A stretch of DNA of 64,000 bases from Escherichia phage ph0011: the sequence record OP557969.1. One strand, given 5' to 3'. Below, piece by piece: positions 61,404-62,643 of this stretch. Both the position numbers and the translations under genes were made by a program. Within the stretch, counting starts at the first letter, position 1. Each line of letters starts with the position of its first letter. The notes beneath the pieces were generated by a model that had not been told where the DNA came from, made no database searches, and worked only from the letters and a program-made list of their open reading frames with translations.

Positions 61404-61508
61404 GAAGAAGATTAGGGTGTTTATTAACAAGAAATCGACGTGAACAAAGAACCAAAATACAAGCCTAATGGCTTCTGGGAACGTCTCTTTGATTGGCTGA
61501 TGGGGGAG
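61404..61508 (+). repeat. 105-bp direct repeat copy 1 (decayed small-ORF copy)
   Basis: conserved ends gaagaagatt.gggtgttt and ggcttctgggaacgtct...tgattgg.tgatggggga shared with 62536-62640; in-frame TAG and TAA. Confidence 0.6.
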
Positions 61509-61510
61509 TG

Positions 61511-61696
61511 ATGGAATATACAATATGTGCTATTATTTGTATCTTAGCTTTAATCTGTGGTGTTGGTGTGATGGTTTATTGTGATGTAGAACCCAGTACT
61601 GAAGTAGGTACAACCATCACATTTAAACCTGGTGTTAAAATTAATGATACCTATTGCTACAATCCAAACACAAACCGCTATGAGATTTGTTTATGA
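61511..61696 (+). CDS. small membrane protein
   Basis: hydrophobic N-terminus; ATG 61511 overlaps TGA of the repeat-encoded peptide frame. Confidence 0.45.
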   Translation: MEYTICAIICILALICGVGVMVYCDVEPSTEVGTTITFKPGVKINDTYCYNPNTNRYEICL

Positions 61697-62100
61697 GAAC
61701 ATTCAACATTGTTCATATAATTGAACCGATTGCAGAACATATGAAAAACATAAGTAATAACGAGTCAGGTTTTTACTTCAATTTAGATAAACTTCATCGT
61801 TATACCAATGTATCTAGTTTTAATCGTGCTAAGAGACTTTATATCCGTATACACAACCTATGGTACAGTGATGATACGTTGATGATAGATATCACTGTTG
61901 ATGAAGACATAAAATTAAGATATATTGACGATTTTAAATCAGATGATATTCGTTCTGGTTCATTACCAATTGATGCTTCATATGAAGAATATCTGCAATA
62001 TCAGTTCATTGATGACACATTTGGCTTTGACTTTGAACTATATAATAGTATAATGAACGTATACCATATATATGAAAGGCATTTGAATGGACATTCGTAA
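61687..62100 (+). CDS. hypothetical protein, paralogue pair member 1
   Basis: C-terminal EYLQYQFIDDTFGFDFELYNSIMNVYHIYERHL shared with next gene. Confidence 0.55.
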   Translation: MFMRTFNIVHIIEPIAEHMKNISNNESGFYFNLDKLHRYTNVSSFNRAKRLYIRIHNLWYSDDTLMIDITVDEDIKLRYIDDFKSDDIRSGSLPIDASYEEYLQYQFIDDTFGFDFELYNSIMNVYHIYERHLNGHS

Positions 62101-62509
62101 AATACCAAATTTCAACAGCACATTAAGGTTCTTTTCTGAACATGAAATCAGTACTGAAAGACGTGGTTTAGTTACATATAATCAACATCGTGTTATGTAC
62201 ACTAATAATTTTCAGGGTACTGTACGAATAAAATTTCGTAATGCGTTAGAAGAGAATGATGAATTGTTAATTTTACTAAGAAAAAGTAAGATTGAATTGA
62301 CATACGCAACTCACCATATTGAAAGTGAGTTGATGTGGCACACCCTATCAAAAAAAGAAGGTTCATTACCAGTTGTTGATAATGGTCCTGAAACACTTGA
62401 TCAGTACATGTTCATTGATGATACATTTAGTATTGACTATCCATCATTTCAGTGTATACTAGATATACATGCAAAATATTACGACCGTCTACGTGATAGA
62501 TTAATTTAA
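62087..62509 (+). CDS. hypothetical protein, paralogue pair member 2
   Basis: C-terminal LDQYMFIDDTFSIDYPSFQCILDIHAKYYDRL. Confidence 0.55.
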   Translation: MDIRKIPNFNSTLRFFSEHEISTERRGLVTYNQHRVMYTNNFQGTVRIKFRNALEENDELLILLRKSKIELTYATHHIESELMWHTLSKKEGSLPVVDNGPETLDQYMFIDDTFSIDYPSFQCILDIHAKYYDRLRDRLI

Positions 62510-62520
62510 TTGGAGGCATT

Positions 62521-62643
62521 GTGATTACAGTGTTAGAAGAAGATTGGGGTGTTTCCGAGCAAGGAACAGATGAATATGAATATCCAGAATATCAGCCAAA
62601 AGGCTTCTGGGAACGTCTACGTGATTGGTTGATGGGGGAATAA
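62521..62643 (+). CDS. possible 40-aa peptide encoded by repeat copy 2 (ends GFWERLRDWLMGE)
   Basis: GTG start 5 nt after GGAGG; intact frame, unlike copy 1. Confidence 0.35.
   Translation: MITVLEEDWGVSEQGTDEYEYPEYQPKGFWERLRDWLMGE
62536..62640 (+). repeat. 105-bp direct repeat copy 2
   Basis: see copy 1. Confidence 0.6.

Follow-up and report, generated by a model that had tools for sequence, protein, structure and literature searches.

A probable old duplication of a small gene, with one copy decayed, in the CCA-enzyme region of Escherichia phage ph0011

In a stretch of 64,000 nucleotides (hereafter the window) of Escherichia phage ph0011 (OP557969.1), a jumbo coliphage from the Asteriusvirus (PBECO4/121Q) group, two similar segments lie on either side of a small membrane-type open reading frame (ORF) and two paralogous genes. 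The initial annotation described the segments as 105-bp direct repeats, of which one encodes a short peptide and the other is interrupted, and proposed a duplication unit, a recombination hotspot or a conserved RNA or peptide element. The question raised by this locus is whether the segments are structural elements of the DNA or copies of a gene. The whole of the evidence makes it very probable that a small gene of 40 or 41 codons was duplicated long ago and that one copy, here called s1, became a pseudogene in this genome, while the other, s2, stayed intact. The features concerned are as follows.

61368..61374, + strand: TATAATA, a 7-nt insertion between the gene P2 and s1 (a gap in all six aligned two-copy relatives)
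61386..61511, + strand: s1, pseudogene belonging to the small-gene family; relatives have 41 codons (intact in seven relatives; family-profile match)
61399..61512, + strand: repeat copy 1 as detected at the DNA level (repeat search, alignment, ungapped scan)
62521..62643, + strand: s2, intact small gene of 40 codons (ORF list; phrog_34272, E 3.2e-31; ratio of nonsynonymous to synonymous divergence, pN/pS, 0.04-0.26)
62531..62644, + strand: repeat copy 2 as detected at the DNA level (repeat search, alignment, ungapped scan)

The repeat pair and the two small genes

Copies 1 and 2 were aligned over 114 nt without a gap at a spacing of 1132 nt, and 75% of the positions (85/114) were identical. 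When copy 2 was used as a blastn query against the full 64-kb window, copy 1 was recovered (61404-61507, 77.4%, E 1.3e-17), and in an ungapped scan of the window the 85 matches lay far above the background (mean 30.6, standard deviation 4.8, maximum 52; z = 11.4). The two segments are thus homologous, as first proposed, and the possibility that alignment statistics would show them to be unrelated was not borne out. The pairwise alignment consisted of two well-kept blocks with a weaker middle between them; the longest exact run common to the copies was 17 nt, and the 3' ~45 nt were the best-kept part, persisting in the broken copy as well. Because the copies resemble each other from their start codons on (MNTIM-LEED in copy 1, MITV-LEED in copy 2), the unit is the entire small gene of ~126 nt rather than the 105-bp segment. 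What the initial annotation saw as conserved ends are two conserved peptide motifs, LEEDWGVS and FWERLxDWL, and the poorly kept middle of the repeat is a variable acidic linker. With high confidence, the “repeats” are paralogous copies of a 40/41-codon gene and not structural repeats. What recurs at this locus is a gene of ~130 amino acid residues, belonging to a family designated P, followed by a small gene (P2-s1 and P4-s2), and not a repeat-genes-repeat arrangement.

The intact copy, s2, starts with GTG at 62521 after the Shine-Dalgarno sequence GGAGG (62512-62516) and runs without an internal stop to TAA at 62641-62643, in agreement with the initial annotation. Its product, MITVLEEDWGVSEQGTDEYEYPEYQPKGFWERLRDWLMGE, matched the phrog_34272 profile end to end (positions 1-40/40, E 3.2e-31). 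The members of phrog_34272 in PBECO4 (gp034, YP_009150348.1) and 121Q (gp538, YP_009102125.1), both named “hypothetical protein”, have the same length as s2 and the same position before the gene of the CCA-adding enzyme; in comparison with them, s1 of the window is a disabled member. The s2 orthologues differ mainly at synonymous sites (pN/pS 0.04-0.26), and s2 is, as judged from this codon pattern, under purifying selection. Among the residues of the protein, 11 are acidic and 3 basic, and a hydrophobic segment is absent. The next gene downstream encodes the CCA-adding tRNA nucleotidyltransferase (ATG at 62645), and the last codons of s2, ATG GGG GAA (GGGGGA, 62634-62639), form the Shine-Dalgarno sequence for that ATG. 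Probably s2 is co-translated with the CCA-adding enzyme. The stretch 62521-62643 is a real conserved gene, which automatic callers can miss.

Read from the ATG at 61386, s1 gives MNTIMLEED-stop-GVY-stop-QEIDVNKEPKYKPNGFWERLFDWLMGE-stop. As had been noticed in the first reading, the frame is broken by TAG and TAA; these stand at 61413-61415 (codon 10) and 61425-61427 (codon 14), where relatives have TTG and GAA, respectively. Upstream, the 7-nt insertion destroys the TAATG stop/start overlap by which P2 and s1 are coupled in relatives. At the other end, the TGA stop of s1 and the ATG of the gene that follows share bases (TGATG), and GGGGGAG at 61502-61508 is the Shine-Dalgarno sequence for this ATG at 61511. 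An intact s1 coding sequence of 41 codons (126 nt), MNTIILEEDLGVYEQETDVNKEPEYKPNGFLERLFDWLMGE, is annotated in Turkey3, Ecwhy_1, fEgEco12, WPEC5 and EC.P1, and with JNE01 and Turkey5, which carry intact s1 as their sole copy, seven relatives have an intact s1. The intact Turkey3-type s1 matched phrog_34272 with an E value of 3.5e-16, and a family profile built in this work matched the fragment of the window s1 after the TAA (E 1.6e-11). These data identify s1 as a pseudogene, not a functional member of the family, and 61386-61511 should be labelled as a pseudogene of the small-gene family instead of a repeat element.

Between s1 and s2, the synonymous divergence (pS) was 0.62-0.66 and the nonsynonymous divergence (pN) 0.11-0.22. 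Because synonymous sites are near saturation (pS ~0.64), the duplication is old and the similarity has been kept at the protein level.

Decay of s1 and the arrangement of the locus in relatives

A 3.2-kb stretch of the locus matched 36 phage records, the best of them at ~90% identity. In addition, L021, a contig that Logan holds for a different metagenome sample (ERR13965906), was 99.48% identical to the window over 2,500 bp. This contig has the insertion and the TAA, while its codon 10 is still TTG and its codon 24 still GAA. Because the insertion and the TAA are found there without the TAG, the decay of s1 was stepwise, and the two sequences place the 7-nt insertion and the TAA at codon 14 first and the TAG at codon 10 afterwards. 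A sequencing artefact was ruled out for the TAA and the insertion, since both are also in L021.

The changes in s1 were polarised with the s1 of JNE01 and s2 as outgroups. On the stem of the two-copy clade, W10L, S13Y, G16E, E19V, Y20N and K28N were placed, several of them at positions conserved in the family. Further changes were M5I and W31L in the Turkey3 group, E14stop and T17I in the lineage of the window and L021, and L10stop and E24K in the window. In total, 12 nonsynonymous changes (two of them nonsense) stood against 2-4 synonymous ones in the two-copy clade, with about 101 and 22 sites, respectively, a ratio which suggests approximately the neutral expectation. The sole copy of JNE01, by contrast with these, had 0 amino acid changes. 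Between the window and Turkey3, s1 showed six nonsynonymous differences and one synonymous difference (pN/pS 1.3) and was 94.4% identical, compared with 98.7% for P2 and ~96% for the membrane ORF. All these lines, each of small numbers, agree and suggest that s1 is dispensable where both copies coexist; redundancy may be what allowed it to decay.

Continued expression of s1, either by readthrough or suppression of its stops or as a C-terminal peptide of 23 residues from the GTG at 61440 (VNKEPKYKPNGFWERLFDWLMGE), is very unlikely, even though the codons of its C-terminal motif are undamaged, the amphipathic helix is kept and an in-frame GTG follows the TAA. Phages of such size can carry tRNA genes, but no tRNA gene was found in the 64-kb window. 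Stop-free stretches of at least 80 codons in the standard code cover 88% of the + strand, which gives no sign of recoding, and two different stop codons would both require suppression. The GTG at 61440 has no preceding Shine-Dalgarno sequence, and a restart there would lose LEEDWGVS, the most conserved part of the family. Moreover, the post-duplication changes in the two-copy clade all fit neutral drift.

For the kept 3' end of the pseudogene there are reasons that do not exclude each other: it encodes the most conserved helix, the inactivation is recent, and the gene that follows has its Shine-Dalgarno sequence there. In genomes without P2 and s1 (type B, see below), GGAG stands at the equivalent position before the membrane ORF. 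With the ribosome-binding site of the downstream gene in this segment, constraint is partly at the RNA level, and its persistence in a broken copy could be taken to mean that the 3' segment is a cis-acting RNA element (a structured leader, a small RNA or a regulatory hairpin) and not coding sequence. This is slightly less likely again than the expression of s1. The Rfam scan of 60000-64000 gave 0 matches at E <= 1, and the minimum free energy z-scores of both copies and their 3' segments (-0.20, -0.53, -0.37 and +0.21) revealed no stability above shuffled controls, the folds differing between the copies. Orthologues vary chiefly at synonymous sites, and the segment is kept as [FW]xxRLxDWL in phages in which the DNA is no longer alignable. 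As for the conserved RNA or peptide element proposed at the outset, the peptide part stood, with the phrog_34272 match and purifying selection behind it, and the RNA part did not.

The arrangement of the locus in relatives involves the following features, listed in order.

60600..60995, + strand: P1, phrog_36582, a distant paralogue in the P superfamily (hhalign against P3/P4, E 2.8e-8, probability 95%)
61003..61510, + strand: optional cassette of P2 and s1, ~502 bp (alignment to relatives)
61008..61379, + strand: P2, 123 amino acids, TTG start, precedes s1 (hhalign against P3/P4, E 7.4e-6, probability 84%; hmmsearch, E 5e-5)
61511..61696, + strand: membrane-type ORF, 61 amino acids, phrog_4189, intact (ORF list, PHROG match)
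61693..62100, + strand: P3, 135 amino acids, phrog_20693 (E 1.6e-60)
62087..62509, + strand: P4, 140 amino acids, phrog_20693 (E 1.9e-53), precedes s2
62645..63757, + strand: CCA-adding tRNA nucleotidyltransferase (Pfam PolyA_pol 1.2e-17, PolyA_pol_RNAbd 1.6e-8)

The bracketed genes were found as the initial annotation had described them, P3 and P4 being paralogues with 29% identity (E 2e-8). The order P1-P2-s1-membrane ORF-P3-P4-s2-CCA (type A) was found in the window, Turkey3, Ecwhy_1, fEgEco12, CMSTMSU, WPEC5 and EC.P1. Type B genomes (PBECO4, 121Q and ~20 others) are without exactly 61003-61510, that is P2 and s1, and in them the P1 stop is joined cleanly to the ATG that opens the membrane ORF. 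Type C genomes (JNE01 and Turkey5) have P1-P2-s1-membrane ORF-CCA and are without P3, P4 and s2. The sole copy of type C has a pS of 0.19 to the window s1 and of 0.64 to s2, and because the synonymous distance to s1 is the smaller, it is an s1 orthologue. Four Salmonella SD phages are without P3 and most or all of P4, and WPEC3 is without P1, P2 and s1. In A4, an extra gene of 355 amino acids (4595-5662 of its sequence, L013), with a DUF4379 treble-clef zinc-finger match (Pfam, E 2e-7), lies between s2 and the CCA gene; it may be of a mobile or homing type. As determined by tblastn, at least one s copy is present in 35/35 Asteriusvirus records, and more than one copy was found only in six full-length relatives, in five of them at two places and in CMSTMSU at four. 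In the CMSTMSU record (UNVERIFIED_ORG), s1 ends in GGGG rather than GGGGG, and many of the neighbouring genes are fragmented.

The identity of the window to its relatives changes along the locus. P1 is 97.5% identical to PBECO4 and 88.6% to Turkey3, P2 is 98.7% identical to Turkey3 at the nucleotide level, P3 is 94% identical to PBECO4 and 69% to 121Q, and over the 3' half of the CCA gene the identity is 78.6% with Turkey3 and 86% with PBECO4. The mosaicism is strong on a scale of a few hundred bases, and its breakpoints lie near gene boundaries. Recombination among co-infecting relatives is frequent at the locus and is not driven by the s repeats. In WPEC5 and EC.P1, a 43-bp tandem duplication was also observed at the 3' end of P1 (aligned at 60954, TTTTTATATTGTACAATAAAATGTATAATTACTTTTTAAGACC...).

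The presence and absence of the bracketed genes do vary among the relatives, and indels and mosaic segments plainly cluster in this region. The s repeats themselves are direct repeats 1,132 bp apart around three genes, and one proposal is that they recombine with each other or bound a duplication unit, exchange creating or deleting the membrane ORF with P3 and P4. This proposal is the least likely of all and largely refuted, given that none of the indels (P2+s1, 502 bp; P3+P4+s2; P3+P4) has both endpoints in s1 and s2, that JNE01 and Turkey5 are without P3-P4-s2 yet have the membrane ORF, that the predicted P1-P2-s-CCA recombinant is in 0 of the 36 related records, and that the copies, only 75% identical and with no exact run above 17 nt, are old by their pS and have undergone no gene-conversion homogenisation. 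Gene conversion between s1 and s2 was considered separately and rejected: the shared 17-nt run, GGCTTCTGGGAACGTCT, is also in the sole-copy s1 of JNE01 and is therefore ancestral.

The small-gene family and its genomic neighbourhood

The proteins of the family have 38-49 amino acid residues and a common layout: [IV]LEEDWGVS stands at the N-terminus, FWERLxDWL forms an amphipathic helix at the C-terminus, and the linker between them is acidic and variable. In an alignment of 14 family sequences, E6, E7, G10 and V11 were invariant and W9 nearly invariant, and the C-terminal motif followed the pattern aromatic-x-[DE][RK][LIV]-x-[DE]-[WF]-[LI]. Both motifs are present in s2; in s1, the motif W is L in the two-copy genomes and a stop in the window.

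Beyond Asteriusvirus, tblastn revealed weaker homologues in other phages of ~350 kb, namely Xanthomonas XaC1 (E 3e-5), Erwinia Hallingskeid, Salmonella Munch, 7t3, SE_PL and PHA46, and Klebsiella fENko-Kae01. In XaC1, Munch and fENko-Kae01, the homologue lies directly before the CCA-enzyme gene and downstream of HPF/RaiA, and the position before the CCA gene was also found in PBECO4, 121Q and two Logan contigs (L020 and L022). The order P-P-s-CCA-Nudix is a deep synteny, found in XaC1, Munch, fENko-Kae01, Hallingskeid and contig L020. Intermediate between the Asteriusvirus and Munch forms is a metagenome protein of 45 residues (P0004), whose gene also lies in the order P-P-s-CCA-Nudix. The position upstream of the CCA gene appears to be typical of the family and not obligatory, as it fails for s1, Hallingskeid and A4.

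A profile search of 1.84 billion representatives returned eight clusters only, all of 38-65 residues. The representative of one of them (P0021, 65 residues) is an s1 fused out of frame into the region of the membrane ORF; the other sequences listed share [IV][LI]EE[DN]WGV and the C-terminal helix motif aromatic-x-[DE][KR][LIV]. The frameshifts of CMSTMSU and P0021 are probably assembly errors, and caution is needed in statistics on the small genes. Papers on Asteriusvirus, the fEgEco12 genome, fENko-Kae01 and jumbo-phage tRNA nucleotidyltransferase do not mention the small gene. What is new here is the wider range of the family (Munch, fENko-Kae01, XaC1, Hallingskeid and the metagenome forms) and its two-motif layout.

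Further genes of the neighbourhood are the following.

59238-60197: lysozyme/LysM (Pfam)
60214-60546: HPF/RaiA (Pfam S30AE)
from 63834, + strand: Nudix gene, cut by the end of the window (Pfam)

According to profile comparison, P1 and P2 share their C-terminal ~45-50 residues with P3 and P4 (EEFxQ[YF]xFIxDxxxIxY...), so that the locus reads as an array of four diverged P paralogues, two small genes and one membrane ORF. No Pfam family was found for s1, s2, P1, P2, P4 or the membrane ORF, and for P3 the single match, to NPHI_C, scored 16.2 bits, below the cutoff of 22.3. The AlphaFold2 model of P4 is a confident six-stranded antiparallel sheet with flanking helices, for which no informative solved structural homologue was found; in BFVD, only RaK2-like jumbo phages have the fold, and it occurs in them as multiple uncharacterised paralogues. 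In Hallingskeid, s again lies inside an array of P-family genes (1299-3389 of its sequence, L017), and extra P members flank it. The number of P genes between HPF/RaiA and the CCA gene ranges from 1 in Klebsiella OU509535 to at least 5 in Hallingskeid. An ORF at 47862-48290 (+ strand) matched the P3/P4 profile weakly (E 0.0016) and may be a fifth, dispersed paralogue.

A derivation of s from the C-terminal domain of P by truncation was rejected. The resemblance in question was that of the P4 tail, FIDDTFxIDY...YYDRLRDRLI, to LEEDWGVS...FWERLRDWL; hhalign gave a probability of 0.5% (E 0.12) and nothing against the P1 or P2 profiles. A DNA match of 23 nt between 62483-62505 and 62611-62633 had a blastn E value of 0.25.

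A match to a sigma-70-like promoter (TTGACA-17-TATACT, 60526-60554) was seen in the gap that separates HPF/RaiA from P1, followed at 60555-60581 by a hairpin with a perfect stem of 11 bp (AAAGGGACAGA...TCTGTCCCTTT). The hairpin could be a terminator or a regulatory hairpin opening the P/s/CCA block. The counts from the promoter and terminator scans were not above the shuffled expectation.

The Nudix gene at the end of the window (63834-64000) is split over two frames, with the junction at 63885-63897. Its upstream piece, read from the ATG at 63834, is MRYSCGIIFYRDGQILIGHTT, and the rest of the domain (GQNHWDLPKGKAEGNETF..., Pfam NUDIX, E 3e-10) lies in the +1 frame after ACA ACA C GGA CAG. A single-frame Nudix gene (GHTTGQEHWDLPKGK) is present in Munch, fENko-Kae01, XaC1 and Klebsiella OU509535, and the extra C is common to all Asteriusvirus sequences examined. 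Among these, the upstream part has 8 variable codons, of which 7 are purely synonymous in the frame of ATG 63834 and 1 changes I to V; the changes within the overlap with the annotated frame, which starts at an internal ATG at 63868, are nonsynonymous in the annotated frame. Such a pattern points to a programmed +1 frameshift, conserved and located at ACA-CGG (CGG being a rare Arg codon), or to a gene in two pieces. A literature search found nothing on it, and the split may be more interesting than the pair of small genes.

Origin, possible function and meaning of the small-gene pair

The reading of the locus as an old duplication, followed by decay of one copy, would run as follows. The duplication would have yielded two modules of a P gene and a small gene, P2-s1 and P4-s2, P and s having presumably been duplicated together. 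Later loss, or recombination between phages, would have left lineages with both modules, with s2 only or with s1 only. Where both copies are present, s1 would be redundant and evolve nearly neutrally, and in this genome it has ended as a pseudogene.

This sequence of events resembles the known pattern of duplicate redundancy and differential loss in that two old paralogues exist, of which lineages keep one or the other, and in that one of them gathers nonsynonymous and nonsense changes when both are present. It differs in that the carrier is a virulent jumbo phage, in which recombination during co-infection may have joined the copies, rather than simple vertical loss having separated them. Compared with moron-like cassettes, the P2+s1 block is likewise a clean unit, lying between the P1 stop and the start of the membrane ORF and having its own ribosome-binding sites; unlike them, it is paralogous to its neighbours and not foreign, and its promoter and terminator matches are not above those of shuffled sequences. 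As in the tRNA-repair and translation clusters of jumbo phages, s2 lies within a block of HPF/RaiA, CCA-adding enzyme and Nudix genes, to which relatives add glutaredoxin and peptidyl-tRNA hydrolase; the difference is that the association of s with this block is positional only.

Several points weigh against this account or parts of it. The co-duplication of P and s is not demonstrable, as P2 and P4 have diverged almost beyond recognition and the best match of P2 in the window is P3. The TAG at codon 10 is found in the window only and could be a single-base sequencing error. The substitutions in the 126 nt of s1 are few, and the case for relaxed selection is suggestive and statistically not strong. 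Klebsiella OU509535 has a P-like gene and the CCA gene without s there, and because of this the rule that one copy is retained is not valid for all relatives. The link of s to the CCA enzyme is one of synteny only and is broken for s1, for Hallingskeid (three genes between) and for A4 (one gene). The s protein has no Pfam match, and the AlphaFold2 model of s2 is weak (predicted local distance difference test score 61), with only the C-terminal helix at 29-37 moderately confident; because of this score, the model is too weak for a fold search. Finally, the s homologue of fENko-Kae01 is not flagged as detected by liquid chromatography-tandem mass spectrometry, while its neighbours are.

With regard to function, the gene order makes s2 a tentative candidate for a small soluble, cytoplasmic partner or modulator in a translation or tRNA-repair module, most likely with the CCA enzyme, although this remains rather unlikely. 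The CCA-adding enzyme of jumbo phages has been read as serving tRNA 3'-end repair (PMC7824862). A more specific and clearly less likely proposal casts s as a dedicated partner of the CCA enzyme or of the wider tRNA-repair and translation module, acting as a specificity or activation factor or as an inhibitor of a host defence that targets tRNA. If true, it would explain why each Asteriusvirus genome has kept exactly one working s copy beside the module while the P array turns over rapidly as an arms-race locus.

The finding is an ordinary one and will not surprise phage genomicists. The family already has a catalogue entry, and its members in relatives are annotated as hypothetical proteins; this work adds, modestly, the pseudogene, the pattern of one retained copy and the deep synteny with the CCA-enzyme gene. 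Phages with both copies, with s1 only and with s2 only nevertheless constitute a natural experiment, in which the successive steps of the decay of the redundant copy can be seen. This pattern is indirect and useful evidence that the 40-residue protein is needed in one dose, and a small protein kept in synteny beside a phage CCA enzyme is a candidate for functional study.

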